NCBI GenBank assembly: GCA_964396265.1
Contig: CAYNEM010000008.1
Location: 72,500 to 136,499, forward strand
Reading direction: 5' to 3'
From: an uncultured Methanomassiliicoccales archaeon
Lineage (GTDB): Archaea > Thermoplasmatota > Thermoplasmata > RBG-16-68-12 > EA-27
Length of the DNA stretch: 64,000 nt
Shown piece by piece: positions 1,415 through 28,970 of this stretch; the first letter of the stretch is position 1, and each line of letters begins with the position of its first letter. Below the pieces are notes generated by a model, which made no database searches, had not been told where the DNA came from, and saw only the letters and a program-made list of their open reading frames with translations. The translations under genes and the position numbers were made by a program.

Positions 1415-2263
1415 ATGTCCCTGCGCATCGACGAAATGAGCGAGCGGAGCGCGCGGTTCCTCCTCGAGGGCATCGAGCCTGGATTCGCGAACGCGCTGCG
1501 CCGGAGCCTCATCGCGGACCTGCCCAAGCTTGCGATCGAAGATGTGGAGTTCCATCTCGGACCGATCCGGGCGGAGGACGGGAAGGAGGCGGAATCCGTC
1601 GCCCCGCTCTTCGACGAAATGATCGCCCACCGCCTCGGGCTCGTCCCGCTTCCCACGGACCCCAAGCTGTTCGTCCCCCGGGCGACGTGCCCCGCTTGCG
1701 GCGGGGAGGGATGTCCGAACTGCACGGTCATCTATTCGCTGAACAAGCGCGGACCTGCAACCGTCTACAGCGGCGACCTCGAGCCGGTCGGGGACGCCAA
1801 GCTCAAGCCCGTGGACCTGGGGATTCCGCTGGTGAAGTTAGGCGAGGGACAGGCGCTGCTCGTGTACGCGACCGCGCAGCTCGGGTTCGGCCGCGAGCAC
1901 GCGAAGTGGCAGGTCGCGCAGGCGGTCGGCTACAAGTACAAGCCCGTCGTGAAGGTCGACAACCGGAAGCTCGACGCGGACAAGTTCCCCCTCGATGTCT
2001 GCCCGCCGAACATCCTTCACAACCGCGACGGCAAGATCGTCGTGGAGCCCGAGGAGGCGTGCATCCTCTGCAACGCGTGCGTCGACGCCGCGAAGGAGCG
2101 CGGGTCCGAGGGCGCCTTCGACGTGTCGGGCGATCCGACGAAGATCCTGTTCCATCTCGAGACGGATGGCTCCATGGACGCGAAGACCGCTGTGCTCGAG
2201 GCGCTCTCTATGCTCGAGACGAAGTTCTCAACGGTTTCGGACCAGACGTCGGCGATGGAGTAA
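1415..2263 (+). CDS. rpoD: DNA-directed RNA polymerase subunit D (Rpo3), with Cys-rich 4Fe-4S-type insert
   Basis: MSLRIDEMSERSARFLLEGIEPGFANALRRSLIADLP matches the Rpo3 N-terminus. Two Cys clusters are present: CPACGGEGCPNC and CILCNAC. Start chosen at ATG 1415; the ORF is open from 1310, and GTG 1382 is an alternative start. Gene order S13-S4-S11-rpoD is the conserved archaeal arrangement. Confidence 0.88.
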   Translation: MSLRIDEMSERSARFLLEGIEPGFANALRRSLIADLPKLAIEDVEFHLGPIRAEDGKEAESVAPLFDEMIAHRLGLVPLPTDPKLFVPRATCPACGGEGCPNCTVIYSLNKRGPATVYSGDLEPVGDAKLKPVDLGIPLVKLGEGQALLVYATAQLGFGREHAKWQVAQAVGYKYKPVVKVDNRKLDADKFPLDVCPPNILHNRDGKIVVEPEEACILCNACVDAAKERGSEGAFDVSGDPTKILFHLETDGSMDAKTAVLEALSMLETKFSTVSDQTSAME

Positions 2264-5200
2264 TCTCGCGCCGAGGCCGATCATCAGCGCCACCGGCAGC
2301 AGCACCGCTGCGGGTTCTGGGACTTCAGCGACGAGGACCCGGCCGCTGTCCGCCTGCCCCGTGTCGTCCCATGCGTTCGCCCCGATCGCGACGCGCCACA
2401 GGGGGTCCGACGCGAACCGGCCGCTCGCGACGGAGGTCCCGAGGCGCTCTCCGTCCTGCGCCCCGGTGAACGTCTCGTCCACGGTCTGATCGGTCGTCGG
2501 GCTGTCGAACCAGTACGCCCGGCCACGGTCCGTCCCGCCGACGTCCGCGGTCGGCGCCCCGAAGAACACGCCTGCGGTCCCGTCCCCGTCAAGGTCGACG
2601 ACCGTGACCGAATTCCCGCACTGTTCCGTCGACGTCAATCCCGCCAAGGTCGCGTCCGGAGACGCCCCCGAGGTGAGACCCGTCCCATCCGAGTTGGCGA
2701 GGAACACGTAGCCGCCGCCGACGTTGGTCGTCCTTCCCGGCGAGCCGACGGCGAGGTCCGCGTACGCGTCCGCGTTGATCGTGCCGAGTGCGACGGAGAG
2801 CCCGAACTTCTCGGCGGAGGCCTGAGCGATCAGCGTCGCCTCCGGGAGCCGGTCGCCCGATCCGCTCGTCATGTTGCTGCCCTTGAAGAAGTGCACGCGG
2901 CCGCTGTTCGAGCTCTGGAACGGTTCCCCGACGACCACGTCCGCGTACGCGTCCGAATCCACCTTCCCGACCGCGAAGTTGTAACCGAACTGCCCCGCGC
3001 TGTTCGTGCTGGGCTTGAGCGTGAAGTCCGAGGTCGATTCCGGCGAGCTGAACGGGGCCTTGTAGACGTGCACCACGCCGTCCTGGCTCGCGAGTCCTCC
3101 GTCGTTGTCCCGACCGGTTTCCCCGATGAGCACCTCGTCGAAGCTCGTGTTGTCGAGGTTGCCCGCAGCCACATACCAGCCGAAGTTCAGCGCCCCGCTC
3201 GGGGGCGTGAACTCCAGGTCCGGCGTCTCCTCGAGCCCGGACCAGCTCGATCCCCCGTAGTAGACCGAGACGTTCCCCGCGATGCCCGCGACGGACCGGC
3301 TCGAGACGAGGGCGTCCCAGAAGCCGTCCCCGTTGAACTTCCCCGCGGCGACGGAGTATCCGTGCTGGGCGTCCGTGCTCGTCCCCCGGATCCGGACGTC
3401 GGGGATCGTCTTGGAGGCGTCGAGCGGCCCATAGAAGATGTACGCGTACCCGTGCAGGGATAGGTTCAGGTTGTTCCGCGGAGCGCCCGTGAGGAGGTCC
3501 GCGAGCCCATCGTTGTTAAAGTCCCCCATGGCGACGGAGAATCCCATCTGCTCCCCGGGATCTTCGGATGCCCCGTCGTTCTCGATCTGGTACGTCGTCG
3601 GATCCACGAGGACCGGATAGGAGGCGGCGGCGAGCCATGCGCCCGGCACGAGGACCGCCAGTGCGCCCTGCCGCCATCGGAACGAGAGGTCGACGCGATC
3701 GCCCGACGCATCCTCCGCCCAGGGCCGGGACATCGCGATCCGCAATCCGCGACCGTCCGTGAGGATGAAGTCGCCCTCGATTCGGATCTCCTCCGCGGAC
3801 CCGTCCCCCGCGACCTCGACGAACAGGTCTCCGTACGCGGCGAGGCGCGTCTCGATTGCGAGCGTGTCCCCGACGCCGACCGGCGGCGGCGCGAACACGG
3901 TGATCGTCTCCTTGAGTCGGGTCGACTCCGCCTCGTACGCGACGGTCGCTTCCATCCCCGCATACGCGTCCGCATAGGTCATCCCGGCCTCGTCCGCGAT
4001 GACGCTCCCCGTCCCGGGAGAGGTCAGGAGCGCCTCGCCACCCGACCCCTCCACGAGGAACTCGGGAAGGGTCCACGAAACCGAGCCCTGCCCGGGGATT
4101 TCGAACGTGACGAGTCCGCCGGTGCCGCGGGGCAGCGTGGCCTCGTACCGTCGGATGAACGTGATGCCGCCCATCGAGGATCGCGTTCCGCGGACGCCTT
4201 CGACCGCGGTGCGGTCGCCCGTCCCCTGCCAGTCCTGGGATTCGACGACGAAATCCGCGCCGCGAAGGTCGACGCCCGCAACGTCGAGCGACCCCTCGAG
4301 CTCGCCGCCGGATGCGAACGCTTTGGCGGTGCCGGCTGCGATCCACCGACCGGACTGCCACCGGAAGCCCTCGACCGCCCGGACCCTGCCGTTCCTTCCG
4401 CGGATATCCAGGAGGGTATCCGCGACGATGCCGCCAACGCCGACTCCACCCTCCGTGAGATTCGTGTCGAAGAAGACACGGATGACATCCTCGCCTACGA
4501 CCCTCGCGGGGACGCCGGGCGGGGGCGGCGGCGCAGCCTGTCCGGGGACCGGGCGGACGCGCGCCTCTGGATGGACCGCGCCGCCGAGCGCCGTTCCCCG
4601 GACCGCCGCGTAGACATGGGCGGTCCCGTTTTGGACTGCGCTCTCGAATCGCTCGAGGTCCACGTTCGCGTTCGACACCTCGTCCGTGTCCGAGGATTGT
4701 GCCGTCCATTCCGTGAAAATCCCGTCGACGGTTCTCTCGTCGGGAATGCGCGTCACATAGGCCCGAGTGGGAGGTCCCCGGATCACGACCGGACGGTCCG
4801 CATCGATCGCCACGAGGTCTGCGGAGAGGAGCGCGGACGTCGCGAGCCCCGAGGCGTCGACGGTCAGCGTCAGCGTTCGCGGTTGCCCCACCGCGACGAC
4901 GAGGGGAGAGAAGCCGTCGATCGGGGGCGTGATGCCGAGGCGGTCGAACGTGAGCGCGTCGACGCGCACGGAGGACCCTGCGGCCCGGAAGGTGACGTTG
5001 ACGAAATCCGTGCCCGGAGCTCGTGCGACCGTCGGCCCCACCGCCTCTTGGACGACCTCGAGCGCTCCGTGCGTGGGACCGAACGCGACCTGCGAGGAGG
5101 CGCGGGACCCAGCCTGGTCGTCGGTGTGGATCACGACCCTGCCGAGGGAGTCGTCGATGGCGACGATGTCCGTGAGGTCGACCTGGACTTCGAGTTCGGA

Positions 5201-6721
5201 CCCGCGATATGCCGCAGTCGGGGCACGGATGGCCTGCCACGCGGTCCAGTTGTCCTGGTCCGTTCCGGACCACAACCAGGCGTGTTGGCCGAGGATCGTC
5301 TGGTCGCCTCCATAGACCTCCAGGAGGAGGTCCGCGCCGACCGAGCCCTCGTCGTACCCGGTCAACCTGCTTCCGTCCGCGTCGACGAACACGTAGAGGA
5401 GATCTGTGTTCGTGGGTTGCACGAACCACGTCCCCCCGACGCGGGCATAGATGGACAGTCGGTTGTCCTGCCACTTCAGGGTGTACTCTCGGAGGTCGAC
5501 GTCCGCGTTGGCGGTGCTGGAACCCTGCGTGTACCCGGGCACCCTTTGCCAATCCGAGAAGTCGCCGTCGATCACCGAGCCCCCGAACACGGGCCCGAGA
5601 GGCTCCGGCAGGAGGAACGAGACGGAAAGCAGGAGGGCCGCGGCGATTGGCACGAGGTAGAGTTTCCATCGCCCCAAGCGCGCCTCGGCGGAGGACCGGG
5701 GACCCCCCAGCCCGTTTGTGAGTCCGAGCCCGTTGGTGAGGCCATTCGTGAGGCCGTTCGTGAGGCCTGCCCGAGTGCGCTGCAGGCCGTTGACGAGGCC
5801 ATTCACGCGTCCCGCCGCAAGGCCGTTGATTGCTCCCAGGCCTTCGGTCCCTCCCGTTCGGAGGCGGACCGTTCCCCTCGGACGCGTGATCGCGCCGGGG
5901 CGTGGTGCGAGGGGGACCCTCTTTGCCCGGGCGGCGCGGTCCCGAGTGTCAGCCCGCTCGAGAAGCGTCGCCATCTCCGCTTCGATGCGCCAGATCTGAT
6001 GCGGGGAGCGGAACAGCGCTCGCACGCGCGCGATGTCCGCCTCGAGGCCATCTGCGTCGAGGGACTTCATGGTGTCCTCGAGGACCTGCACCTTGCGCAC
6101 GTTCTGGTCGAATTGGAAGAACGCCGTCCTAACGCGATCGGGGTCGTCGCGGGCGACGGCCCGAAGAGGGCCGACTTCAAACCCCGCGGCTTCCCACGCT
6201 GCGAGCCTTTCCTCGGGCGTCTCTGCGGATCCCTCCGGTCTCGTGAGCGAAGCAAGCTCCTCGAGCCCCCGGACCGCCTCCCTCTCGGCAACTTCCTCCT
6301 CCGCCGCGTGGAGCCCGTCGAGCTCCTCCGTCAGGGACGTCAGGGCTTCCTCGACGCTCGATTCTCCCGACGGCGGTTGGCCTCCGGCGGCCTGGATGGC
6401 CTTCCGTTCCGCTTCGGCGGCTTCCTCCGTCCGCCCCAGGCGGCCTAGGACGAACGACAGGAGGACCTGGAGACGGCTGAGGGAAGGATCCAGGGATTCC
6501 GCCTTGCGGAGGGCCGCCAACGCGTCGTCCCATCGATCGAACTCTGAGAGGAGGATCCCCTTCCGGAACCACAGCGTGGGATCGTCCGGGGCGCGCTCGA
6601 GCGCGGCGTCGACATCCGCGAGGGCACTCTCTGTCGGGCGCTCCTCGCGCTCGGCACGAGCCCACTTCTCAAGGAAGTCCTTGGCGAACTTCCGTCGCTC
6701 CTTGTCCTCCTCTTCCGCCAT
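2228..6721 (-). CDS. Giant membrane protein (1497 aa): cytoplasmic TPR-like N-domain, one TM, extracellular integrin-alpha-like FG-GAP beta-propeller, C-terminal VPEP-CTERM-like sorting/anchor signal
   Basis: N-terminal ~330 aa are helical and TPR-like (WFRKGILLSEFDRWDDALAALRKAESLDP), with a coding TNGL repeat (GLTNGLTNGLTNGL; 12-nt DNA repeats ~5710-5790). TM helix WKLYLVPIAAALLLSVSFLL. At least 7 FG-GAP-type repeats follow, e.g. FGYSVAAGKFNGDGFWDALV, FGYNFAVGKVDSDAYADVVVGEP, FGLSVALGTINADAYADLAVGSP, CGNSVTVVDLDGDGTAGVFFGAP. The C-terminus is AEVPEPAAVLLPVALMIGLGARLLHRRRLVRNR, i.e. a VPEP motif + TM + Arg cluster. Its last 12 codons overlap the convergent rpoD 3' end. Confidence 0.8.
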   Translation of the reverse strand: MAEEEDKERRKFAKDFLEKWARAEREERPTESALADVDAALERAPDDPTLWFRKGILLSEFDRWDDALAALRKAESLDPSLSRLQVLLSFVLGRLGRTEEAAEAERKAIQAAGGQPPSGESSVEEALTSLTEELDGLHAAEEEVAEREAVRGLEELASLTRPEGSAETPEERLAAWEAAGFEVGPLRAVARDDPDRVRTAFFQFDQNVRKVQVLEDTMKSLDADGLEADIARVRALFRSPHQIWRIEAEMATLLERADTRDRAARAKRVPLAPRPGAITRPRGTVRLRTGGTEGLGAINGLAAGRVNGLVNGLQRTRAGLTNGLTNGLTNGLGLTNGLGGPRSSAEARLGRWKLYLVPIAAALLLSVSFLLPEPLGPVFGGSVIDGDFSDWQRVPGYTQGSSTANADVDLREYTLKWQDNRLSIYARVGGTWFVQPTNTDLLYVFVDADGSRLTGYDEGSVGADLLLEVYGGDQTILGQHAWLWSGTDQDNWTAWQAIRAPTAAYRGSELEVQVDLTDIVAIDDSLGRVVIHTDDQAGSRASSQVAFGPTHGALEVVQEAVGPTVARAPGTDFVNVTFRAAGSSVRVDALTFDRLGITPPIDGFSPLVVAVGQPRTLTLTVDASGLATSALLSADLVAIDADRPVVIRGPPTRAYVTRIPDERTVDGIFTEWTAQSSDTDEVSNANVDLERFESAVQNGTAHVYAAVRGTALGGAVHPEARVRPVPGQAAPPPPPGVPARVVGEDVIRVFFDTNLTEGGVGVGGIVADTLLDIRGRNGRVRAVEGFRWQSGRWIAAGTAKAFASGGELEGSLDVAGVDLRGADFVVESQDWQGTGDRTAVEGVRGTRSSMGGITFIRRYEATLPRGTGGLVTFEIPGQGSVSWTLPEFLVEGSGGEALLTSPGTGSVIADEAGMTYADAYAGMEATVAYEAESTRLKETITVFAPPPVGVGDTLAIETRLAAYGDLFVEVAGDGSAEEIRIEGDFILTDGRGLRIAMSRPWAEDASGDRVDLSFRWRQGALAVLVPGAWLAAASYPVLVDPTTYQIENDGASEDPGEQMGFSVAMGDFNNDGLADLLTGAPRNNLNLSLHGYAYIFYGPLDASKTIPDVRIRGTSTDAQHGYSVAAGKFNGDGFWDALVSSRSVAGIAGNVSVYYGGSSWSGLEETPDLEFTPPSGALNFGWYVAAGNLDNTSFDEVLIGETGRDNDGGLASQDGVVHVYKAPFSSPESTSDFTLKPSTNSAGQFGYNFAVGKVDSDAYADVVVGEPFQSSNSGRVHFFKGSNMTSGSGDRLPEATLIAQASAEKFGLSVALGTINADAYADLAVGSPGRTTNVGGGYVFLANSDGTGLTSGASPDATLAGLTSTEQCGNSVTVVDLDGDGTAGVFFGAPTADVGGTDRGRAYWFDSPTTDQTVDETFTGAQDGERLGTSVASGRFASDPLWRVAIGANAWDDTGQADSGRVLVAEVPEPAAVLLPVALMIGLGARLLHRRRLVRNR
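5710..5790 (-). repeat. Coding 12-nt tandem repeat (TNGL x ~5) inside the FG-GAP giant gene
   Basis: Plus-strand period-12 unit gttggtgaggcc/gttcgtgaggcc encodes GLTNGLTNGLTNGLGLTNGL. Confidence 0.6.
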
Positions 6722-6826
6722 CGGTCTGCGTCCCCGCTCATGAGGGGGCGAGGGCGGATATAGGTTCTATCCTAAGGCCTCAAGTATCTATACAAATATC
6801 TCGATTCACACGTCCAATCATTGGTG

Positions 6827-7636
6827 TCAGGCGAAGTCGAAGAGGCTCTTCTGCCCCTCCTCCTTCATTCGGAAGGCCCAATCGACCGGGTCGAGCCCGT
6901 ACGCTTCCCGGAAGAGGTTCACACACGCGGGGCCGAACCCCGCGAAGTGGTTGTTGAAGAACACGTATGCGTCTGCTACGCGGTCCTCGACCTTCTTGAC
7001 TTCGCCCAGCCACGTCTTGATCTCCCCGGTGCGGTCGCGCTGGATTTCCCCGGTCAGTTTCGGAAGGCTGCGATCCCCGATGAAACGGAGGTACAGGAAG
7101 TCCGTCGTCAGGACAGGCGGTACCTGGACATAGTCGTTGTCGGACCAGCAAAGCGCGACGCCACGGTCCTCGAGCCAGGCGTACGTTTCCGGGGTGAACC
7201 ACGAGCCGTGGCGGAACTCGATCGCGTATCGATACCCGGAAGGAAGGGCGTCCACGAAGCCCTCGAGGAGCTTCCGTCCTGTCCCGATGGAGAACCGCGG
7301 GGGCAGCTGGATCACGAGCGGGCCGAGCTTGGGACGCATGAGAGAGATGGCGTTGAAGAACCAGCGCAGCGGGTCGTCGACGTTCACAAACTGCTTGTCG
7401 TGCGTAATCAGTCGCGGGAACTTGGCGGTGAACAGGAACCCTTCGGGCGTGGCGTCCGTCCAAGCGCGCGTCATGTCCTGCGACGGGATCGCGTAGAACG
7501 AGGTGTCGACCTCGACGATGTCGAACGCGCGCGCATACAAGGAGAGGTAGTCCGTCGCATCCGCCCGGGCCGGGTAGAACGAGCCGCCCCACTCCGGGTA
7601 CGACCAGCCGACGCAGCCGATCCGAAGGCGGGCCAC
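6827..7636 (-). CDS. DUF72 (UPF0759) family protein
   Basis: MARLRIGCVGWSYPEWGGSFYP...FYAIPS...AWLEDRGVALCWSDNDY...ADAYVFFNNH is a typical DUF72/YecE-like full-length match. It lies between the two co-directional giant genes. Confidence 0.8.
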   Translation of the reverse strand: MARLRIGCVGWSYPEWGGSFYPARADATDYLSLYARAFDIVEVDTSFYAIPSQDMTRAWTDATPEGFLFTAKFPRLITHDKQFVNVDDPLRWFFNAISLMRPKLGPLVIQLPPRFSIGTGRKLLEGFVDALPSGYRYAIEFRHGSWFTPETYAWLEDRGVALCWSDNDYVQVPPVLTTDFLYLRFIGDRSLPKLTGEIQRDRTGEIKTWLGEVKKVEDRVADAYVFFNNHFAGFGPACVNLFREAYGLDPVDWAFRMKEEGQKSLFDFA

Positions 7637-7689
7637 GGACGAAGATGCGTTTCAAGGATATAGATTTCCCCGGAGGTCCGGAAGGCGGC

Positions 7690-10600
7690 TCAGGCGATAG
7701 GCTGCGTAGGACCGGGCTTTCCTTCTCGCGCCTCGACGAGGGCCAGCAAGTCGGCTTCGGACATGCGGTATCCCTTTCGCCAGATCGCGAGGGCGACTAC
7801 GAGGCCCACCGTGAGGACCGCCGTGTTCGCCCAGAATCCGAGGGGGAGCCAATTCCCCGCTTCCGGGATGCGGAAGACGCCGGTCGTGAGCGACAGGACC
7901 CCAATGGCGGCCTCCCCGACCGCGAACGGCACCGCCAGCAGCATGCGCGTGAATCGTCGATCAAGGGTGACCTTCTCGTCAATCTCCGGAATCGACAGTT
8001 CTTCGAGCTTCTGCATCAGGGGGAGCCCCGCCCATCGCAGGGCACGGGCCTTCCGGTCCCCGTCTTTCGGCATGGGCACGTGTCGGTCCAGTGGACGGCT
8101 CGCGAGCGTGACGCCCGCGACGAACAGGCCGGTCGCGTAGACCAGCGCGAGGAGAGGCTTCCAGTTCGCAGACAGAGGCGCTGGCGGTGCCGCCTGAGAC
8201 ATGTACACAATGACGACGTCGAACGCGGAGTTCACCGTGAATCTGGTGGCATTCTGCGTAAACCTCGGCGGGTCCCCGGTCGTTCGGTTGGACACCTCGA
8301 GAGACCGGGCCGCATCTGCCCACGGGAACACACCGCCGATCACCGCCATCTGCATGATGACGATGCCTTCCTCGGACCACGAAGCGGTGACGGAGTGACG
8401 TTCATCGGTCCCGAGAATCGTGACCCGGGGTCGGTACTGGTGGCGGTAGGAGACGATCGTGTCCAGCGGCGCATCAATTCGCCACTCCGTCGTGCCGAGA
8501 GTCCGGTACCGTTCGCGCTCGCCCGGGAAGATGGCGTCATCCACACGGACGGCCGAGCCCGCGTCGACCCAGGCGGTCCATGCGTCGGACACGTTCGCGA
8601 GTCCCGCGGCCGCGAAGGCGGTGAAGTCCAGGGACACCGGGAGCCCGTCGAGGCCTGCGACGCGCACGTTGGTGGTGAACTGGTGCAGGTAGTGGACCGT
8701 CGCTGATAGCGGCGCGTCGACGGTCCAGAGCGTGGGGTCCGCGGTGAGGAACCTCTCCCCCACCACTCCCGGCACGAGTCCATCGACGTCGAGCGCGGAC
8801 GCATCGTCCACCCACGAAGCAAACGAGTCGTACAGCCTGTCCGAGCGGTCGCTGCCGAACAGCGTGAACCCGATTCCCGCAGGCCACGCGGCCGAGAGCC
8901 CGATCAGGGTGAGTGTTGCAGGATGCTGCAGGGCATAATTGGCGGTGATCGTCGCGTCCACGGATCCGACGGTTACGGTGTGGTCGATTGCGCCGCCATC
9001 GTCCCATCCGAGGAACGCAAGGCGCGAGCCGCCGAACGAATCGAAGTCGATCGAGGCGATGCGATGGAGTTCGCCCGGCTGCCAAACGAACGTCGCAGGG
9101 ACCGTGTAATCCGTCCCATCCACTTGGACGACGCCCCAATCCGGGGAGCGGGTGATCGTGTAGGAAACGTAGGTCGGGCAGACGGTCCAGAACAACCAAG
9201 GGTTCGGCACAGGCCCCGGCCCCAGAGAAGTGCCATCGAGGTCGGTGCCCGATGTGACGGTGACCGTGTACAACATGCACTCGGAGAAGGCCTGATGGAC
9301 GAGGTCCAAGGTCCGGGTGTCCACCCAAACGGGGTTGGTTGCGACGGACGGCGCGACCGTCCACGCGACCGAGCTGGAGTCCATGTCCTCGCTGAACTCG
9401 ATGCGGATCGTCGCATCGAGTGCGACGTCCACCGCACCATGCACCGGCGTCGTGGCGGTGATGAAGGGCGGAGTCGTGGCCGCGAGCACCTCGAGGATTC
9501 CCTGGGGGATCTCCTGATAGATAGTCGAATTGTCCCAGCGCACGTAGGTGGCTCGCGCATCCGGGCTTAGGCCGATGGCCTGGACCCCGAGCCGCGTGGA
9601 CGTCACGCCGTACTGCACCGCCCACGTCTCGTTGATGTCGATGCTGCTGACGTTCCACTGCAGGACCGTCCGGTCCGCGAGCCGGACCATGAACTCCGGC
9701 GGCCTCGGCATGCCCGACATCGGGTCCACGAAGCTACCGGGCACGACGTTCAGGTACGGCAGGATCGCGTCGGCCACCATGGGGGTGACGTCCGTGGGGT
9801 CCGGGTCCACGCCGGCCGTGCGGTTGATGCGCGTCCCGATGTCCGCGTAGATCTGGAGGAGGTCCTGCGGCGTGCTCGCCTGGTAGAACCGTCCTCCGGT
9901 CGGGATCGCGATGTTCTCGAGGAACGTCTGGTCGATGCTCGAGCCGAGTCCGATCGTGTAGATCACGATGCCCTCAGTGACCGCTTGGTTCACGATCGCG
10001 TTCGTGTTGGGGCACGGCAGACCGGCGGGCACCGTGCACTGCCCGTCCGTGAGCAGGATCTCCACGCGCGTCCGCGTGCGGTCGGAATACGTAATGAGCC
10101 ACGTGTTCCCCACTTGGAGCGCGTCGTCGATGTTCGTGCCCCCGAAGCAGCCCGGGCTGCACGCCGTGGTGTTCGCGTCGTTCATCAGGTCGATCTTCCC
10201 GGGCAGGGTCGTGTACGTGAGCGGGCGTCCGTTCACGACCCATGCGACATCCGAGAACCCGACGATGGAGGCCCGGTCGTCCACACGCATGCCGCCGATG
10301 TAGGAGTTCACTGCCTGGACGCGCACGTTCGACGGGTCGTTCGAGTTCATGCTACCCGAGACGTCGATCTGGAAGATGACGTCCTGGGGGACCTGGATCT
10401 CGACGGGGAGGCCAGCGCCCTCGATGAGGATCGTGACGTTCGCGACCTCGTTGTACGGCGACCCGGATCCTTCGAGGTACACCGTCCCCGGGATCACTGT
10501 GCGGTAGATGTCGAAGTGGGGGCTTAGTCCGATGCGCAGCCTGACGGACGCGCGGGCGACAGCCTTGGACGCGGCACTCGCGGACACGATGATCGTGTTC

Positions 10601-13095
10601 CCGTCCCCGAGCGGGGCCACGGACGGGATCTGGACCTCGGCGAGGAACGACGCGCTGCCCGAAGGACCGAGGACACCGAGGTCCGGGGTCGCGTCCGGGT
10701 CCGCTGCGGAATCCGACAGGGGCGTGCCGTTCGTCCATGTGTACGTGACCGGCCAGTTCGGCATCGCCGACGTGCCGTCCACGTTGATCACTTCCGGGAC
10801 GGACTGTCGGTTCGTCGCGGTGAGGAGAAACGCGATCGTGGTGCCGATGTCCGTGAGGATGCTCGAATCCTGTGCGAGTCCGACGAGGGCGAGGGACGGG
10901 ACTGCGTCGAAGGACCATCCGTTCGCGACGGCGCTGGGATCGTCGTGGGCACGTGAACCGCCGACGCCGGCGTTGCGGGTCGCGCTCAGCCCTGCCGTAT
11001 GCGCGGAATCCCAGCCAAACATGTCGAGGAGCCGACCGCTCGCATCGTAGAGGTACAGGTTGTCCGTCGCAGCGTCCAAGGCCGCCCACCACCCGGGGCC
11101 CGCGGATTCGAAGAAGAAGGCGTACGGGTTCGCCCCGTCGATCAGTCCGCCCGAGAAGGTGTACACGGAGTCCGCGACGAGGCGGTACCCGGTGAGGTCG
11201 GCGCTCGTCCGGGCGAAGATCTCCGCGAAGAGGTCCCCGGGCGCAGCCGGGTTGAAGAGGACCTCGTTGAGCACCACGGGCGGTGCGAGGTTTGGCGGCG
11301 GCACAAGGTTCCGCGCGCCGAAGGTCGACGCCACGGAGCGCGTCCAGGAGGTCACGTAGTCGAGCGTCCCCGCGAATCGTGCGGTCGACTCCGCCCCGAG
11401 CGGATCGGGCGCGATCCCGTACGGCCCGGATCCCGCCTTCGCGAGGACGTCGGCCCCCCGTTCGATTCGGACGAGCGCGCCCTCCGTCCCGAGGTCCAGC
11501 GCCGCCACAAGGTCCGCGCCCGTCGCCCCGACTACGACGTGGCTCCGCGCGGGCCAGGTCCCGAGGGGGGTGAGGTCCACGACGGATGCCCCTGCATACA
11601 TGGTCGCTCCGCTGAAGTCGAACGCCGTCCGGCCGAAGTTGTAGATCTCAACGCGTGCCTCGGGCGTGGGTGTGTCTTGGACTTCCGTGATCACGAGCGG
11701 AGACACCTGGACCGAGGTTGCGTACGTGTCGTACGTCCCGCCGCGCGCGTCGTCCCAGACCGCGAAAACCCCGAATCCGCCCGTCCTCAGCGTCGGGCTA
11801 ACCTGGATGGTCGCGTCGTCGGCCGGGTTCGCATTCCGGTCCGTGTCGTCGAGGCGCAGGTCGTTCCCGTTGACGACGCCGTCCCCCCAGGTGATTCCGT
11901 CCGCAGACCACGCGGCGTAGGTGTCGTAGTCCCCCGCACGGTTGTCGTCCCACGCGACCCAGATCGTCCCGGCGAGGGCGGACACGGAGGCCTGTCGCAT
12001 CGAGACGGGGGTGATGAGCGCATCATCGACGGCGACGGGCGGGGACCAGCTGGTCCCGTCGTGGCCCCATGCGTACATGGCGTGGGCGATCGTGGGCGTC
12101 TGCGACTCGATCCAAGCGACGTGCGCGACCAGCATATCGTCCACGAACACGTCCGGCGCGAACAGGTTCGCAGTCGGGTTCGCGGCCATGGAGACGACGG
12201 CGGTGGTCCAGCTCGCCCCCGCATCGTCGGATCGTGCGACGCTGATCGCCGGTCCGTTCCCGAGGACCTGCCGCCAGGCCACGGCGATCGTGTCGCCCTT
12301 CGCGTCGATCCGCGGTTGGAGGTTCGTCGCGCTCAGGGACGAGACCTGGACCTCGGCGCCCCAGGTGGCCCCCCCGTCGGGCGACCCCCGGAAGTAGACG
12401 TGAAAGGCCAGCGGGTCACGGTTGTCTGCCCAAACCGCGTAGAGGCGGCCCGACGTCGCTGCGATCGTCGGCGTGATCGACGCGTTGTTCGCCGGCGCGC
12501 TGTCGATGCGCCGAGGCGCGCTCCACGACACGCCGTTGTCCGACGAGACGAACCAGACGTCCGCGTTCGGTCCTGCCTCCGTCTGGTAGGCGACGTACGC
12601 ACGCCCCTGGACCGGGACGGCCTCGCGCTCCACGACGATGCGGGGGAACGACACGTTCCCGAGGGCCCCGTCCACGCGCACCGTGGGGCTCCAGGAGACG
12701 CCGTCCGCGGAGCGGGAGTAGTAGGCACCCCGGGGCGACGTCTTGTTCTCGGAGCGCACCACATGGAGGACGCCGTTCGCGTCGACCGCCAGCGACGGGT
12801 TCCGAGCGTCCGTCGGGCCGGGCTCGATGGGGACGTTCACATCCGCGGTCGGCAGCGCATTGACGGACAACGGCTGGGGGAGGATCGTGAGAATCAGGAG
12901 TGAGAGCGCGACGAGCGCGAATGTGCGCAAGGGTCTTGCGGGGACCCTGTCCGGCGCTCGGCGCCCTGCCTGGGCATGGGCTCCCGACCCTCCCTTTTCC
13001 ACCGCGCGGGCATTCGTCACGGGGACTAAAAGGAATCCCCCGAATGGTCTTCGCGTGCGCAGTCGGACGCTCGCGTTCTCTCCTCTCTCTATCAT
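7690..13095 (-). CDS. Giant surface protein (~1800 aa): signal peptide, BNR/Asp-box sialidase-like beta-propeller, vWA domain with MIDAS, Ig-like domain, C-terminal TM anchor with cytoplasmic tail
   Basis: Many Asp-box motifs SxDxGxTW (SADGVSWSP, SSDNGVSWSA, SPDGGATWGA, SDDAGASWTT, GHDGTSWSP, SADGITWGD). vWA/MIDAS: VIFQIDVSGSMNSN...IVGFSD...LLTDGQ...IYTIGLG. Ig-like: ATTPVHGAVDVALDATIRIEFSEDM. C-terminal TM segments are LLALVYATGLFVAGVTLA and AAIGVLSLTTGVF, plus a cytoplasmic tail. The ORF is open to 13341, but a signal peptide (RTFALVALSLLILTILPQPLSVNA) points to a start at ATG 13095 or TTG 12930. Confidence 0.8.
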   Translation of the reverse strand: MIERGENASVRLRTRRPFGGFLLVPVTNARAVEKGGSGAHAQAGRRAPDRVPARPLRTFALVALSLLILTILPQPLSVNALPTADVNVPIEPGPTDARNPSLAVDANGVLHVVRSENKTSPRGAYYSRSADGVSWSPTVRVDGALGNVSFPRIVVEREAVPVQGRAYVAYQTEAGPNADVWFVSSDNGVSWSAPRRIDSAPANNASITPTIAATSGRLYAVWADNRDPLAFHVYFRGSPDGGATWGAEVQVSSLSATNLQPRIDAKGDTIAVAWRQVLGNGPAISVARSDDAGASWTTAVVSMAANPTANLFAPDVFVDDMLVAHVAWIESQTPTIAHAMYAWGHDGTSWSPPVAVDDALITPVSMRQASVSALAGTIWVAWDDNRAGDYDTYAAWSADGITWGDGVVNGNDLRLDDTDRNANPADDATIQVSPTLRTGGFGVFAVWDDARGGTYDTYATSVQVSPLVITEVQDTPTPEARVEIYNFGRTAFDFSGATMYAGASVVDLTPLGTWPARSHVVVGATGADLVAALDLGTEGALVRIERGADVLAKAGSGPYGIAPDPLGAESTARFAGTLDYVTSWTRSVASTFGARNLVPPPNLAPPVVLNEVLFNPAAPGDLFAEIFARTSADLTGYRLVADSVYTFSGGLIDGANPYAFFFESAGPGWWAALDAATDNLYLYDASGRLLDMFGWDSAHTAGLSATRNAGVGGSRAHDDPSAVANGWSFDAVPSLALVGLAQDSSILTDIGTTIAFLLTATNRQSVPEVINVDGTSAMPNWPVTYTWTNGTPLSDSAADPDATPDLGVLGPSGSASFLAEVQIPSVAPLGDGNTIIVSASAASKAVARASVRLRIGLSPHFDIYRTVIPGTVYLEGSGSPYNEVANVTILIEGAGLPVEIQVPQDVIFQIDVSGSMNSNDPSNVRVQAVNSYIGGMRVDDRASIVGFSDVAWVVNGRPLTYTTLPGKIDLMNDANTTACSPGCFGGTNIDDALQVGNTWLITYSDRTRTRVEILLTDGQCTVPAGLPCPNTNAIVNQAVTEGIVIYTIGLGSSIDQTFLENIAIPTGGRFYQASTPQDLLQIYADIGTRINRTAGVDPDPTDVTPMVADAILPYLNVVPGSFVDPMSGMPRPPEFMVRLADRTVLQWNVSSIDINETWAVQYGVTSTRLGVQAIGLSPDARATYVRWDNSTIYQEIPQGILEVLAATTPPFITATTPVHGAVDVALDATIRIEFSEDMDSSSVAWTVAPSVATNPVWVDTRTLDLVHQAFSECMLYTVTVTSGTDLDGTSLGPGPVPNPWLFWTVCPTYVSYTITRSPDWGVVQVDGTDYTVPATFVWQPGELHRIASIDFDSFGGSRLAFLGWDDGGAIDHTVTVGSVDATITANYALQHPATLTLIGLSAAWPAGIGFTLFGSDRSDRLYDSFASWVDDASALDVDGLVPGVVGERFLTADPTLWTVDAPLSATVHYLHQFTTNVRVAGLDGLPVSLDFTAFAAAGLANVSDAWTAWVDAGSAVRVDDAIFPGERERYRTLGTTEWRIDAPLDTIVSYRHQYRPRVTILGTDERHSVTASWSEEGIVIMQMAVIGGVFPWADAARSLEVSNRTTGDPPRFTQNATRFTVNSAFDVVIVYMSQAAPPAPLSANWKPLLALVYATGLFVAGVTLASRPLDRHVPMPKDGDRKARALRWAGLPLMQKLEELSIPEIDEKVTLDRRFTRMLLAVPFAVGEAAIGVLSLTTGVFRIPEAGNWLPLGFWANTAVLTVGLVVALAIWRKGYRMSEADLLALVEAREGKPGPTQPIA

Positions 13096-13168: not shown

Positions 13169-16100
13169 GTGTCCTCGCAGCATCGGCCCCAACGAGCCAT
13201 AGGCCACCGAGTGCCGGCCCTCGCGGTCGCGCTCTTCAGCGTGTTCGCTTCCCTCCTCGCGGTGATCCCGCGGGTCACCTCGGATCCGTGGGTGACCGCC
13301 AACGGGGACGGCACCTCGGACGCCGTGTGGAACTTCAGCAATCCAGGGGACTACGTCCTTACGAACACGCAGATCAGCGGGGGCGCCGGGCTGCTGGCGT
13401 CCGCAGGTCCGGGCGTCCAGTACTGGAACAGCACGACTGCGGGGGACTTCGCCGGCCCGGACTCCGCGACGAACGTGGACTTCACAAGTTCTCCGGGGGA
13501 CGTGATGCTCGCGACCACCTCCGGCGCTTCGACGCTCCTCGTGCTGCAGCCGGCCGCCACGGGCGAGGATTCCTGGCTGGAGGAGTTCAACCCCACCACG
13601 ACCCACGGAGCCGAAGCGTTCATGTCCGCCGATGGGACGGGCTCGCGGCGCCGGCCGGTGCTCCGGTTTGACCTTTCCTCACTCCCGGTGGGTGCCGTGA
13701 TCGACGGCGCCGTTCTCTACCTGTACCAGTACACCGACGCTGACGGCACCTCGGTTGTCATATCCGTGCACGAAGTGATCGCAAGTTGGACCGAGGCCGA
13801 TGTCACGTGGGACGACCGGAACGCGGTGAGTGCGTGGGCGTCCCCCGGCGGCGACTACGATCCTCACGTCATCGCGCAGGCAACGATCGACGCCGCGAAC
13901 AACGTGTGGCGGTCCTGGAACATCACCCAGCTCGCAGACCTGTGGTACCGCGGCGTGCGCCCGAACAATGGTCTTATCTTGGTCACACCGTCCGCAGCCG
14001 TCCAGCTGAACAAGGACTTCCGATCGTCCGACTACGGGGTGGCGGCCGAACGACCCCGACTGGAGATCCGATACCGTATCTTGGGCGCAACCGGAGAATA
14101 CGTATCGCAGGTTCTCGGGCCGGGCACGCCGACCGCTTGGCAGACGATTTCGTGGAACCCATCGGTCCGCAGCCTCGTCGCGGACGAGTTCAACGGTGCG
14201 TCGCTCGACCCGAAGTGGACCTGGCTCAACGCGCCCGCGTCGTTTGACGTGGGAACGACGCTGCCGGGAAACCTACACGTCGTCTCCACCGCCAATTCGC
14301 AGATCGACGGCGCCACGTTCACAGGAAACGCGTTGTGGAACGATGTTGTCGGCGACTTCAGCGCGGAGATGAAGTTCAGCAGTTCGCCGACGGCGAGCAG
14401 CAATCGCGTGGGCCTCATGGCCTTGCTCTCGCAGCGGGACTGGTTCTCCGTCGGGAAACATTATTCTGGCGGGGTCGCGAACTGGATGACCCGCGAGACG
14501 GTCGACGCGGTCACGACAACCATCTTCAACGGGGCGAGCGGCAACCCAATCCCCGCATGGGTCCGCCTCGTGCGGACGGGGAACACGTTCGACGCGTGGA
14601 CGAGTTCGGACGGAACCGCCTGGACCTTGCGGGACACATACGCGCCCTCGGACCAGTACCCGCTGGCGATCCGGCTCGCATTCTACATCGCACACGGGGC
14701 GGCGGGCTCGGGCTTCTCGGCCGACGTGGACTACATCCGAGTCACGCACGGCGCCGGCGCGACGGTCTCCGTGTCGACGCGGACCGGCGACACGAACCCG
14801 GTCGACGGGACGTGGTCCGGCTGGTCCGCCTCCTACCCGTTGTCCTCTGGGTCGGCGATGGCGGGGACCTCGAACTTCGTCGAGTACCGCCTCTCCTTCG
14901 CCGTCTCCACCGCCTCCCCCGACCACCGTCCCGTCGTCGGGGATGTGAACATGACTTCAGGGACCGCGTCCTACGTGGCCGCGGGGACGATCGAGACGAA
15001 CGATCTCGTTCCCGCAGACCTCCAGCAGTGGGGAACCCTCACCGTCGCCGACGCCCCGAACGGGCAGACCGTGAGCTACGAATACTCCCTCAACTCCGGC
15101 GGGAGCTGGACGCCCGTCGTACCCCCCGCGGACCTTTCGGGCGTGAGCGTCGCATCCGGACGGATCCGCTTCCGCGTCTCGCTCTCCACCTCGGACAGCC
15201 AGTTTACCCCCACGGTGAGCGAGATTCGCCTCACGTACACGCACCGCCTCGACCACTTCTACGTGACCGCCTGGGCGGCTGCGGCCGCGGGCGCGCCCTT
15301 CTCGGTCACGGTCACCGCCAAGGATGCCGCGAACGCGACGATCCTGAGCTGGACGGGCACCGTGACGTTGGCGGCGCGCCTCCTCGACGGCATCACGCCC
15401 GGCAACGGCATCCTCGGCACCACGAGCCTCGTGATCTCCGCGGGCGGCACCGCCACCCTCGCGACGGAGAACTACACGCGCACTGAGACGATCCGGATTC
15501 ACGCTTCCTTCGGAGCCCAGGAAGGATTGAGCGGTCCGGTCCTCATCTCCCCAGGCCCGATCGTCCGCGTCGTCGTCGCGCCGCCCTCCGTCACGCTCTT
15601 GCCCTTCGCGAGCCAGTCCTTCACCGCCACCGCGTTCGACGCTTGGGACAACCCCGTGCCGGGAGCCGTGTTCGCATGGATCGTCACGAACGGCGTCGGG
15701 ACACTGAACACCTCCTCCGGTCCGACCGTGACCCTGACCGCCCAACCGCCCGACGGTGCGAATGGGACCCTGGAGGCGACCGCCTCCGGCGTCACCGGGG
15801 TTGCGCTCATCACGGTGGGGATCCCGAGCCTCGACCACTTCTACGTCACCGCGTCTGCGTCCGCGGCGGCGGGAGCACCGTTCTCGGTCACCGTCACCGC
15901 CAAAGATGCGACGAACAACACGATCATGAGCTGGAACGGCACCGTCACCCTGGCGGCCCGTCTGCTCGACGGCATCACGCCGGGGAACGGGATCCTCGGC
16001 ACGACGAGCCTCGCGATCTCCGCCGGCGGCACCGCGACGCTTGCGACGGAGAACTACACGCGCGCGGAGACGATCCGGATACACGCTTCCTTCGGAGCCC

Positions 16101-19100
16101 CGGAGGGGTTGAGCGGCCCCGTGGTGATCACCCCCGGCCCCATCGCTCGGGTGGCGGTCGCGCCGCCCGTCGTCACCGTCCTCCCCTTCACGAACCAGTC
16201 CTTCACCGCTTCCGCGTTCGACGCCTGGGACAACCCCGTGCCCGGCGCTGCGTTCACGTGGGTCGTGACGAACGGCGTGGGCACTCTGAACACGTCCGCG
16301 GGTACGACCGTCACGATGACCGCCCAGCCGCCGGTCGGGGCAATCGGGACCGTGGAGGCGACCGCCTCCGGCATCACCGGAGTCGCCGCGGTCACCGTCG
16401 GGACGCCGACGCCTCCCTGGGTCGTGATTACCGCCCCTAACGCCGGCGCCAGCATCACGGGGACCGCTTCCATTGCTTACTCGTACAGCCCCGACACGGT
16501 CCTCGCCACGTTCGACTACGACGCCGGCGCGGGCTGGGTCCTCATCGGGAACACGTCGTCGCCGACGGGCACGTTCCCCTGGGATACGACGGGCGTCGAC
16601 GCCGTGGGCGTCGTGCTCCGCGCCTGGGTCGAGAACGCGGCCCTCATGACGAATCAGACGACCGTGACCCCGATCGAGATCGACAACACGGCGCCGACGA
16701 TCGCCATCGGCACCATCACGGACGACCAGGCGACGGCCGGGACCGTGACGATCGCCTACACCACTGCCGCGGACGTCGCCCGCGTGGACTTCACCTACTT
16801 CGACGGAGCTTGGCAGACGGTCGGGACGGACCTGACCATTGACGGCACCTATGTCTGGTCGCCCGGAGTCGCGATCAACGGCGTCACGCTCCGCGCAGTC
16901 GCCACGGACGAGGTCGGCCTCTCCGGCGCGGATGCCAAGCAGGGGGTCGGGACGCGAATCGTCGGCACAAACCCGCCCGCGATCGCCGCCATTCCCACCC
17001 TGTACGTCCGAGTTACCGCCGCGTACGATCTCAACCTCACGTTCTATCTCTCCGACCCCGATACGCCCCTGTCCGGACTGGCGGTGACGACGTCCGACCC
17101 GGCGAATGTGACCGCGTTCGCAGGGGCGTATCCCTCCCTGCGCGTCACCTATGCCGCGGCAGGCACCTACAACGTCACGCTCTGGGTCTCCGACGGCACC
17201 GACACCGCGTGGCGCATCGTGCGGGTGATCGCGTCCGGCACCAACCCGCCTGTGCTTCTCGCTCCGCTCGGGACGGTAACGTTCGACGAAGACACAGTGC
17301 TCTCGGACGCGCTCGGGGTGCTGACCACGCGGTTCTTCGATGCCGACGGGGACAACCTCACGTTCACGGTACTCGGCGCCGCTGTGATCAGTTGGCGGCT
17401 GAACCCGAACGAGACTCTGGACCTCTGGGCCTCGGCGGACTGGTTCGGTTCCGAGATCGTCCGCGTGCGGGCGTCCGACCCCTCGGGGGGATTCGCGGAG
17501 GCTCCGCTCGTCGTCGTCGTGCGCCCCGTCAACGACGCTCCGGTCCTGGCGGTGATCGCTCCCCTCCGTTGGACACGAGGCGAGTCCCGCACCCTCGACC
17601 TCACCCCCTACGTGTCCGACGTGGACACGCCGCTCGCCCAGCTGATCGTGACGACCGACAGCACCCACGTCCGCGTGAACGGCCTCGTGCTGACGATGGC
17701 GTTCCCGTCGAACTGGACCGAGGCCCAGTTCACGGTCTCCGTGTCCGACGGCCCTGCGCAGGCGTCGCAGCTCGTCCGGGTGACGCTCCTGCCCGGGTGG
17801 TGGAATCCCATGTATCTCCTTCTGCTTCCGGTTTCGGCATTTGGTTTGGTGATTGGTGTGATGGCTCGACGTGCGCGTTGGAGGCCCGCAAAGGCCTTCC
17901 TTGTGGATGACAGGAACGAACTGATTCGAGAGTTCACGATGGACACTGCGTGCGAGGTCACGTGGGAACAGGTCAGCGCGGCCGGGGCGCTGCAGGCCGT
18001 CGACGAACCCGTCAAGATCTCCAAGTACCGTGCGCAGACGGTCCGGGGCGATGCCCTCGGCCTGGTGCTCCTCGCGTACGGACCCGTGAACCACGAGCAG
18101 ATCGAGTTCGCGCGAGAGATGCTCGTGAACATCCAGGGCAAGTTCGAGGATCGCCTGAACACCCGACTCGAGCAGAACCGCGAGTTCGAGTCCCAGGTCC
18201 GCACGCTTCACGAGGAGCTGCAGAGCAAGCGCGAGGCCTTCGAAACGCGCTCCCGCGCCTTCGCAGGGATGTTCGACGCGTGGACGACCGCCCAGACAAA
18301 GATGGCGGCGGAGTCAGTGTCCATCCGGGCGACCCTGGCTGACGTGGAATCCCGGGAGGAAAGCCTCATCGAGGGCGGACACAACCTCGACCGGGAGCGC
18401 GCGACCCTTCGGAAGGAGCGCGAAGAGTTCACGGCCCTCGCGGATCGCCTCAAGCAGGAGATGGACCGCCGCACCGTGGAGCTCGAGAATCGGGAGGACG
18501 TCCTCGGGACCATGGACAGCAAGGTGAAGGAGGAGCGGAAGTCGTTCGACACGCTGCGGCAGGAGAAGATGCAGCGTCTCGCGTCGATGGACGTGGAGAT
18601 CGAGGCGAAGGCGAAGAGCTTCGAGGAGCGGGAGGCCGCGGTGAAGTCCCAGGCTGAGGAGAACGCCCGTCTTCTCTCGGATTTGGCGGCGCGCGAGGAG
18701 ACCCTGGAGATCGAGGGCGACCGCGTCGAGCGGCTCCGCCAAGAGGTCGACCAGCGCAAGGCCCAGACCGACGTCACCGCGCGCGGCATCGACGCGCGCG
18801 TTTCGGCGGTGCGGGACCAGGAGGCCCGCAAGTCCGAGGAGTATCGGAACCTGGAGGCGACGCTCGAGTCCCGGGAGTCGGTCCTCCGCGAGCAGGAGAA
18901 GGCGTTCCAATCGCAGATGATGAACCTCCACGAGACGGCGAGCGCGAAACAGCAGATGCTCGACGGCCGCGAGGGGAAGGTCGGAGAGCTCGAGTCGAAG
19001 ATCCGCGCGGAGGCGGACCGGATCAAGAAGACCGTCGACGATTTCGGCAAGCGGGAGCAGGCGGCGCAGGACGCCCTGCGCGATGCCCGTGCCCTTAAGG

Positions 19101-26259: not shown

Positions 26260-26432
26260 GTCGGTGTGCCTCCGCCGAGACCGCAGCTATGCGGCCCCGC
26301 GCGTCGCACCGGTTGGCGGGCTATTTAATGATTTGGCGGTGGGAATCTCGCGAGCATGGTTTCGCTTCGAATCGATCCCCGATGCGCGGTGCGGCGGGGA
26401 AACGCTTTAGTCGGCTCCCCCTATGGCGGGCC

Positions 26433-28960: not shown

Positions 28961-28970
28961 GGACGGGACG

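Follow-up and report, generated by a model that had tools for sequence, protein, structure and literature searches.

The stretch of DNA considered here (the window) comprises 64,000 nucleotides of contig CAYNEM010000008.1, from an uncultured Methanomassiliicoccales archaeon, and carries side by side two giant reverse-strand genes, which we call A and B. Gene A encodes a protein with a seven-blade FG-GAP beta-propeller and gene B a protein with a von Willebrand factor A (vWA) domain, and an earlier reading of the sequence (the original prediction) had joined the two as an integrin-like alpha/beta pair. The gene coordinates and reading frames behind that proposal are correct, both by translation of the open reading frames (ORFs) and in an independent gene call taken from the identical public contig (run SRR12685296), and a single gene, of the DUF72 family, does lie between A and B. 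Hidden Markov model (HMM) searches and structure prediction likewise confirm that the repeats of A are FG-GAP and that the domain of B is a vWA domain.

Protein A is laid out as a type-II membrane protein (Table 1) and has full-length homologues at 38-53% identity. Its cytoplasmic N-terminus of about 350 residues begins with TPR-like repeats; every single Pfam TPR model falls under its curated cut-off there (E values of 3e-5 to 5e-3), and the segment matches TPR proteins in the PDB at 4.5e-10. A run of glycine- and asparagine-containing juxtamembrane repeats leads to a transmembrane (TM) helix, and we place the N-terminus inside because the ATPase domain found at the N-terminus of homologues must be cytoplasmic. 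The ectodomain opens with all-beta modules that no Pfam model matches, continues into the propeller and gives way to a PEP-CTERM-like signal, of which P1468, E1469 and P1470 are invariant across the 12 homologues of the A alignment (motif form [VI]PEP). When PEP-CTERM and archaeosortase HMMs were run on the C-terminal 40 residues of A and two homologues, PEP-CTERM-family models remained sub-threshold (15.4 bits where 65 is the cut-off; TIGR02595 7.9 against 16), and the window ORFs scanned yielded no sortase or archaeosortase. One paralogue of A (P0017) carries the NCBI annotation PEF-CTERM. The 3' end of A overlaps convergently with that of the forward-strand rpoD gene (1310-2263) by 36 bp (window 2228-2263), an overlap that is called in relatives too (14501-14536 in locus L001).

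The propeller matches Pfam FG-GAP (1.8e-16) and FG-GAP_3 (3e-8), and its seven FG-type repeats begin at residues 1059, 1121, 1180, 1245, 1306, 1368 and 1427, a spacing of about 60 residues. Sequence comparison with the PDB retrieves integrin alpha5 and alphaV at 5e-13. An AlphaFold2 model of the ectodomain (predicted local distance difference test, pLDDT, 78) places about 28 strands over the propeller, and all of its top 50 Foldseek matches in the PDB are integrin-alpha headpiece propellers (E 3e-11, template-modelling score about 0.65, 16-20% identity). The propeller is also matched by FG-GAP proteins of bacteria (Eisenbacteria, Myxococcota), with 28-34% identity and E values of 1e-16 to 1e-25, and in tblastn comparisons the bacterial FG-GAP loci L069 and L079-L085 are at least as close to it as integrins are. 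Of its Dx[DN]xDG loops, those of blades 1 (DFNNDGLAD) and 6 (DLDGDG) are canonical and those of blades 2 and 4 partial. The cytoplasmic TPR-like N-terminus and the seven blades that had been read from the sequence are borne out by Pfam, PDB and AlphaFold2/Foldseek comparisons, the C-terminal end has the tripartite shape of a candidate sorting signal, and the predicted order holds, with one correction to the place of the propeller. Its final strand (GRVLVAEV) stops one or two residues short of the invariant PEP-TM signal, and since the propeller is the last domain and runs directly into that signal it must be membrane-proximal, at the C-terminal end of the ectodomain, and not a distal head.

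Protein B is a surface protein with an ectodomain of about 1570 residues in which the vWA domain lies mid-chain. Its start is ambiguous (window 12931-13095): the ATG at 13095 fits a leaderless start and a 55-residue cytoplasmic N-terminus, and the independent call begins 55 codons downstream (1746 residues), directly ahead of the hydrophobic signal segment, a start that would yield a classical cleavable signal peptide (…PLSVNA/LP). The BNR propeller has three canonical SxDxGxxW boxes, at residues 184, 238 and 289, and further degenerate ones can be recognised by eye. The vWA domain was predicted to sit after this propeller, and the order is right, with an LTD domain and further beta domains intervening. 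Its DxSxS metal ion-dependent adhesion site (MIDAS) is intact as anticipated, all five MIDAS residues being invariant or at least 90% conserved in the 14 homologues of the B alignment, the lowest of which is 36% identical. An AlphaFold2 model of residues 860-1200 (pLDDT 89) has as its nearest Foldseek matches the Catenulispora vWA protein 4fx5 (2e-18), PitA, SpaC, RrgA, GBS104, Mfa5, archaeal ArnB and ITIH1; integrin beta chains appear at rank 20 or lower with E values of about 1e-10, and the sole PDB match by sequence is inter-alpha-trypsin inhibitor heavy chain H4 (ITIH4), at 6e-9. Residues of about 1310-1630 (window 8200-9170) hold three to four tandem copies of a beta domain of about 80 residues, with the conserved motif ER(Y/F)RT...W.V..PL...V.Y.HQ(F/Y) and no Pfam match. 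Where a single C-terminal TM helix with a cytoplasmic tail had been described, hydropathy indicates three helices; the tail is present, its 29 residues (RKGYRMSEADLL...) containing no NPxY, and the helix-bearing region before it includes a conserved 50-residue cytoplasmic loop and the invariant positions P1723...L1761.

Table 1. Features of genes A and B, the gene between them, and the other giant genes of the window (aa, amino acid residues; positions are those of the window)
Feature	Position	Strand	Description or evidence
Gene A	2228..6721	-	1497 aa, type-II membrane protein with FG-GAP propeller; same 1497-aa length in independent call
A aa 20-110, cytoplasmic TPR-like repeats	6392..6664	-	Pfam TPR_16/TPR_9/TPR_2 (E 3e-5 to 1e-3, under curated cut-offs); PDB matches
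A aa 296-338, cytoplasmic juxtamembrane G-R-V-N-G / T-N-G-L repeats	5708..5836	-	Invariant columns G304...L338 in 12 homologues
A aa 352-373, TM helix, N-terminus inside	5603..5668	-	Hydropathy 2.19, R/K residues just before
A aa 376-1040, all-beta ectodomain modules (about 670 aa)	3602..5596	-	AlphaFold2 model all-beta
A aa 1044-1466, seven-blade FG-GAP (integrin-alpha-type) beta-propeller	2324..3592	-	Pfam, PDB sequence, Foldseek
A aa 1467-1497, VPEP, hydrophobic helix and RRRLVRNR	2231..2323	-	PEP-CTERM-like tripartite signal
TATA-like box CTATATCC	6756..6763	-	35 nt upstream of A start codon
DUF72 gene	6827..7636	-	269 aa, cytosolic; sole gene between B and A; independent call also 269 aa
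TATA-like box CTATATCC	7656..7663	-	20 nt upstream of DUF72 GTG
Gene B	7690..13095	-	1801 aa from ATG 13095; surface protein with BNR, LTD, vWA, Big_5, repeated beta domain, three TM helices
B aa 55-78, signal peptide or signal anchor LRTFALVALSLLILTILPQPLSVNA	12862..12933	-	Hydropathy 2.03
B aa ~90-560, BNR/Asp-box (sialidase-type) propeller	11416..12828	-	Pfam BNR_2 1.4e-14
B aa 605-695, lamin-tail (LTD) Ig-like domain	11011..11283	-	Pfam LTD 2.1e-8, 34.9 bits vs cut-off 34.3
B aa 905-1083, vWA domain	9847..10383	-	Pfam VWA 1.1e-9; VWA_2 also matched
MIDAS DVSGS of B vWA	10351-10365	-	D911-x-S913-x-S915, plus T987, D1017
B aa 1207-1293, Big_5 bacterial Ig-like domain	9217..9477	-	Pfam Big_5 1.7e-12
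B aa 1647-1772, three C-terminal TM helices	7780..8157	-	aa 1647-66, 1718-37, 1752-72 (hydropathy)
TATA-like box CTATTTAA	13119..13126	-	24-31 nt upstream of B ATG 13095
Gene C	13169..20257	+	2362 aa; divergent from B, 73 bp apart; signal/TM
Gene D	31181-38281	-	2366 aa; fn3/Pur_ac_phosph_N-like domains, about six C-terminal TM helices
Gene E	41759-45142	+	1127 aa; BNR_2, Ig-like repeats, C-terminal TM helix; Heimdall-CTERM match sub-threshold

Judged from alignments and motif searches, A is an FG-GAP-capped member of a large, Thermoplasmata-specific family of modular transmembrane proteins, for which we found no description in the literature searched. The family plan runs from a cytoplasmic module, TPR or KaiC-type ATPase, through TNGL repeats and one TM helix to a beta module that is conserved next to the membrane and a distal domain that can be exchanged, and A shows all of its defining features, in the invariants of the alignment, the loci carrying the repeat pattern and the matches of the ectodomain module. 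The stretch that defines the family, residues 296-720 of A (window 4562-5836), is also found in loci L011-L087. A search of 1.84 billion clusters at 50% identity with the first 345 residues of the A ectodomain retrieved at least 606 representatives at E<=1e-3, 393 of them at E<=1e-10, and the pattern TNGxG[FL]TNGL together with a propeller motif recovered 77 distinct loci, upheld by tblastn (70 in Thermoplasmata-type archaeal metagenome-assembled genomes (MAGs) and seven bacterial FG-GAP matches). Several MAGs have three to seven paralogues, VBML01 reaching 7 loci. The TPR N-terminus is retained in full-length homologues that are 48-53% identical to A; in P0007-P0011 a KaiC-type ATPase (PF06745/DUF7504) and a CxxC zinc ribbon replace it (residues 1-350 of A, window 5669-6721), and these proteins are collinear with A from the TNGL repeats on, with 38-41% identity overall and 56-57% in the propeller. 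Dozens more proteins have only the repeats, the TM helix and the membrane-proximal ectodomain module in common with A, such paralogues running to dozens in a clade, and the distal domains of other members include LTD, PKD and others. At 13 loci (L031, L034, L041, L042, L044, L047, L050, L051, L060, L062, L064, L076 and L084) a gene for a CDC48-like AAA ATPase, 43-55% identical to the CDC48 of the window, lies about 3-8 kb from an A-family paralogue, and it may represent a second recurrent neighbourhood of the family.

Gene neighbourhoods in relatives were gathered by exact protein look-up and by two scans, one of a genome collection with the A alignment and one of metagenomes with that of B; window pieces were compared by tblastn with 113 loci, and where loci had 1.5 kb or more in common at no less than 95% identity they were treated as one lineage. 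The named relatives of A and B were all encoded in MAGs assigned to uncultured Thermoplasmata, to Methanomassiliicoccales-like organisms or to 'Methanobacteriota', with soil, sediment and groundwater as the sampled habitats. An FG-GAP-type A gene lies no more than two genes from a B-like gene in 14 of the 18 informative B lineages, and the linkage occurs in three arrangements and at two unrelated loci, one with rpoD, S11 and S4 and one with RadB and mevalonate genes. We sorted the B relatives into three clades. Seven lineages, the window included, make up clade W (B 52-69% identical), where the order GcvT-C-B-DUF72-A(TPR)-RpoD-S11-S4 is constant and the entire block collinear. Clade Y is more distant (B 33-39% identical): six lineages (L020, L022, L058, L099, L101, L102) have the order IPK-IDI2-GGPS-RadB(-)-A(KaiC)(+)-B(-), with A and B convergent, and one (L007/L011/L104) has B(-)-RadB(-)-A(+). 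The synteny expected of a pair is therefore present in most B lineages, with exceptions in both directions. No A-type gene was found within 10 kb of B in clade X (B 49-50% identical; L008/L095/L096/L100 and L009), clade-Y locus L010 has B followed by RadB without A, and L105, which encodes a more distant B-like protein, likewise lacks A. Conversely, seven FG-GAP A lineages (L005, L006, L014-L018) have no B in their sequenced flanks of about 10 kb. At loci of propeller-less A paralogues a B-like gene was found in none of about 55.

The two loci can be compared within a single genome, MAG bin_16 (JAFNFQ01), which has at its rpoD/S11/S4 locus a TPR-type A without B, C or DUF72 (L018) and at its RadB locus a KaiC-type A with B (L020). 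B thus stands beside the TPR-type A of the rpoD locus in the clade of the window and beside the KaiC-type A of the RadB locus in bin_16, that is, with two FG-GAP paralogues at two loci, and this distribution is suggestive of functional coupling, although it is not proof. The propeller of the window protein is 56-57% identical to those of KaiC-type homologues at the RadB locus (L005-L007) and 42% identical to that of its positional TPR-type orthologue at the rpoD locus of bin_16, and the N-terminus of A has the opposite affinity; the opposed affinities could stem from recombination, or from gene conversion, among paralogues. The small RecA-superfamily ATPase encoded beside KaiC-type A was considered as a signalling partner and rejected, as it is the housekeeping protein RadB (TIGR02237, 227.8 bits against 172.4).

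The DUF72 protein (PF01904; 2.4e-58, with 198 bits where 25.3 is the cut-off, covering positions 1-216 of the 217-position profile) was also considered as a component of the system and rejected; it is 76-88% identical within the close clade, is confined to that clade and is missing from every RadB-locus arrangement. Promoters were sought as TATA-like boxes, a sigma-70 promoter/terminator scanner being unsuited to archaea. The 8-mer CTATATCC has three exact copies in the window (the third at 31345-31352) where 0.16 would be expected, and the copies at promoter distance from A and DUF72 suggest a shared element of TATA/BRE (B recognition element) type. That B, DUF72 and A each have a TATA-like box of their own and that the genes are convergent in clade Y argues against an operon, and the convergent arrangement at the RadB locus indicates that the linkage needs no co-transcription.

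We consider it about an even prospect that A and B are linked, separately anchored multi-domain surface proteins, with adhesion or envelope functions, encoded in an island of surface-protein genes. Both proteins would be displayed on the cell surface. In A, a calcium-type FG-GAP propeller would be held at the membrane by the PEP-CTERM-like C-terminal anchor and could serve as a calcium-stabilised binding platform, and the cytoplasmic module may couple surface events to the cell interior. B would be of adhesin type, displaying a sialidase-like BNR propeller, Ig-like domains and a vWA domain whose divalent MIDAS cation would bind an acidic group of a ligand, as in other vWA adhesins. Most likely the two take part in a shared surface process, which could be adhesion to particles, polymers or cells, or organisation of the envelope, and this would account for the tendency of the genes to stay together. 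A physical complex between A and B is possible, and the data do not require obligate heterodimerisation. Two considerations weigh against this interpretation, from opposite sides. RadB is a housekeeping gene that is conserved beside A just as B is, so much of the clade-Y order is simple inheritance, and such vertical inheritance makes the neighbourhood signal weaker than the raw counts suggest. The association with two FG-GAP paralogues at two loci, as seen with bin_16, is on the other hand more than a loosely shared process predicts, and leaves room for a direct complex.

That the two genes stand together through historical accident, A being a TM sensor of the KaiC/TPR family and B an adhesin or a glycan-binding or glycan-hydrolysing protein of unrelated function, is unlikely, and it is the alternative that survives best. 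Giant surface genes would pile up in islands where ancestral gene order decays slowly, and several observations fit: the giant membrane proteins A to E fill 27.5 kb, or 43%, of the 64-kb window, the collinear block of the close clade includes housekeeping genes, the distant clade keeps housekeeping RadB and the mevalonate genes beside A just as it keeps B, and adjacency has exceptions in both directions. Against an accident stand the presence of B beside FG-GAP A at two unrelated loci, since a random single relocation of B to within two genes of an FG-GAP A has a probability of about 1% (a rough estimate, with at most three targets among about 2000 genes), and the lack of B at the loci of propeller-less paralogues.

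The original prediction went further than shared function, and its integrin-like alpha/beta proposal stands in part: A has an alpha-type propeller and the domain and topology logic holds, but the likeness of B to a beta integrin stops at the generic vWA fold. In integrins the two subunits form an obligate, non-covalent heterodimer through the propeller/betaI interface. Like integrin alpha chains, A has seven FG-GAP blades of about 60 residues. The calcium-binding hairpin loops of integrin alpha (Dx[DN]xDGxxD) lie within its final three or four blades; the canonical calcium-type loops of A are in blades 1 and 6, with partial ones in blades 2 and 4. The integrin-alpha propeller is N-terminal and distal and that of A C-terminal and membrane-proximal, and no thigh or calf (Integrin_alpha2) domain is matched in A by Pfam at E<=0.01. 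Integrin alpha is also a type-I TM protein with a short GFFKR tail, unlike the type-II protein A with its 350-residue cytoplasmic N-terminus and PEP-CTERM-like end with RRRLVRNR. B shares with the integrin beta I-like (betaA) domain a predicted extracellular location and a Rossmann-like vWA fold with a complete DxSxS...T...D MIDAS, the latter being generic to vWA domains. Neither a Pfam match to Integrin_beta nor a PDB sequence match to beta chains was found in B, and by Pfam it has none of the PSI, hybrid, EGF and beta-tail domains, with BNR_2, LTD and Big_5 instead. Integrin beta chains have auxiliary metal sites, ADMIDAS and SyMBS; the MIDAS stretch of B reads DVSGSMNSND, with no DD pair at the positions of the beta3 ADMIDAS (adjacent to MIDAS) site, as read from sequence alone, and where integrin beta is a type-I TM protein with an NPxY tail, B has three C-terminal TM helices and lacks that motif. 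Integrin leg, PSI, hybrid and EGF domains and type-I topology occur in neither A nor B. On these comparisons A and B are not homologues of integrin alpha and beta subunits except in the FG-GAP and vWA domains, which are ancient and shared, and the vWA domain of B is, by sequence and model, of a generic prokaryotic adhesin type and not beta-I-like.

Other known systems provide parallels to parts of each protein. In B, as in the pilus-tip adhesins RrgA, SpaC, GBS104, PitA and Mfa5, in 4fx5 and in ITIH, the vWA domain belongs to a large extracellular protein and has Ig-like domains around it; unlike the bacterial vWA adhesins, B stands in no pilin or sortase (LPXTG) setting, carries TM anchors of its own and has an extra BNR propeller and LTD domain. 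Archaeal KaiC-like ATPases are reportedly found in membrane-associated signalling proteins (Makarova, Galperin and Koonin 2017, mBio). Homologues of A resemble such proteins in joining an N-terminal KaiC-type domain (PF06745/DUF7504), a TM helix and an extracellular region, and the window protein differs in having TPR repeats in place of the ATPase.

Propellers of the kind seen in A have precedents. Seven-blade integrin-type propellers are described in bacteria (Chouhan et al. 2011, PMC3192720), the VCBS/integrin-like supercluster is prokaryotic (PMC8023676), and Archaea are noted to have ITGA-like proteins (bioRxiv 10.1101/2020.04.29.069435). As in those prokaryotic cases, the complete propeller of A belongs to a protein that is no full-length integrin. 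Neither a propeller on a modular TM family nor linkage to a vWA protein appears in the passages of PMC3192720, PMC8023676 and 10.1101/2020.04.29.069435 retrieved by keyword. A literature search for an integrin-like pair or a giant adhesin family in Thermoplasmata or marine group II (MGII) returned nothing specific. The suggestion that the system had not been described in archaea thus holds for the pair, as far as the literature searched goes, and not for the propeller, archaeal ITGA-like forms of which are noted in the bioRxiv passages.

A two-subunit receptor is doubtful, in which the A propeller would dock on the vWA/MIDAS of B to form a composite, metal-dependent ligand-binding head, coupled to the cell interior by the TPR module of A (a KaiC ATPase in relatives) and by the cytoplasmic loop and tail of B. 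In its favour, adjacency recurs in three arrangements at two loci and is restricted to the FG-GAP subfamily of A, the MIDAS motif of B is strictly conserved, integrin-alpha headpieces are the closest structural match of the A propeller, and both proteins are membrane-anchored with cytoplasmic parts. B, however, lacks beta-I features, with no Integrin_beta match, no DD pair at the ADMIDAS positions and beta chains at rank 20 or lower, and the geometry is unlike that of integrins, the propeller of A abutting a C-terminal anchor and the vWA domain of B standing mid-chain in its long ectodomain. There are, moreover, B lineages without A, among them L008/L096 and L009 at 49-50% identity and L010, as well as the seven FG-GAP A lineages without B; no fused FG-GAP and vWA protein was found among the homologues; and the genes have separate promoter-like boxes and in one clade a convergent orientation. 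The linkage at two loci with two A paralogues, confined to the propeller subfamily, nonetheless keeps a two-subunit receptor under consideration. Its bolder form, in which A and B would be a two-subunit adhesion receptor dependent on divalent cations, with a propeller/vWA interface as head and a swappable KaiC ATPase or TPR module on the cytoplasmic side, and a prokaryotic functional analogue, possibly even an evolutionary forerunner, of the integrin alpha/beta head, we regard as improbable.

The remaining giant genes lie on the far side of B and further along the window. C adjoins B throughout the close clade; the ectodomain of its product is lectin-like (Disaggr_repeat/CBM96/DUF1349), a TM helix spans residues 1547-1567, and about 800 residues form a cytoplasmic tail that is coiled-coil-like; C-like genes are also found beside A-family paralogues in L028, L029 and L032. 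Glycosyltransferase and phosphomannomutase genes are nearby (window 26289-30104). The window has a G+C content of 64-69% over most of its length and carries archaeal housekeeping genes, those for S4, S11 and RpoD (211-2263), a thermosome (45200-46864), CDC48 (51917-54133), DnaK/DnaJ and GlnA. Least probable of the readings weighed is that A and B, anchored at both ends, form a structural coat or glycocalyx scaffold of a wall-less archaeon: the N-terminal TM helix and C-terminal PEP-type anchor of A, the N-terminal signal anchor and three C-terminal TM helices of B, the very large all-beta ectodomains, the TM anchoring of C, D and E with the long cytoplasmic tail of C, and the genes for glycosyltransferase and phosphomannomutase would all suit it, but the intact, conserved MIDAS and calcium-type propeller loops point to specific ligand binding, the swapping of distal domains in the A family is typical of binding modules, and the N-terminus of B may be a cleaved signal peptide and not an anchor.

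If a complex of A and B were real, it would be the first prokaryotic pairing of a propeller subunit with a MIDAS-vWA subunit and would open the origin of the integrin head to testing in archaea. On the more likely, modest reading of linked surface proteins, the locus leads to a large and uncharacterised family of Thermoplasmata TM proteins, numbering at least 606 clusters, whose exchangeable extracellular binding domains are coupled to KaiC-type ATPase or TPR modules, and to one A subfamily that is repeatedly linked to a giant vWA adhesin, offering an entry point to the cell surface of uncultured soil and sediment archaea.

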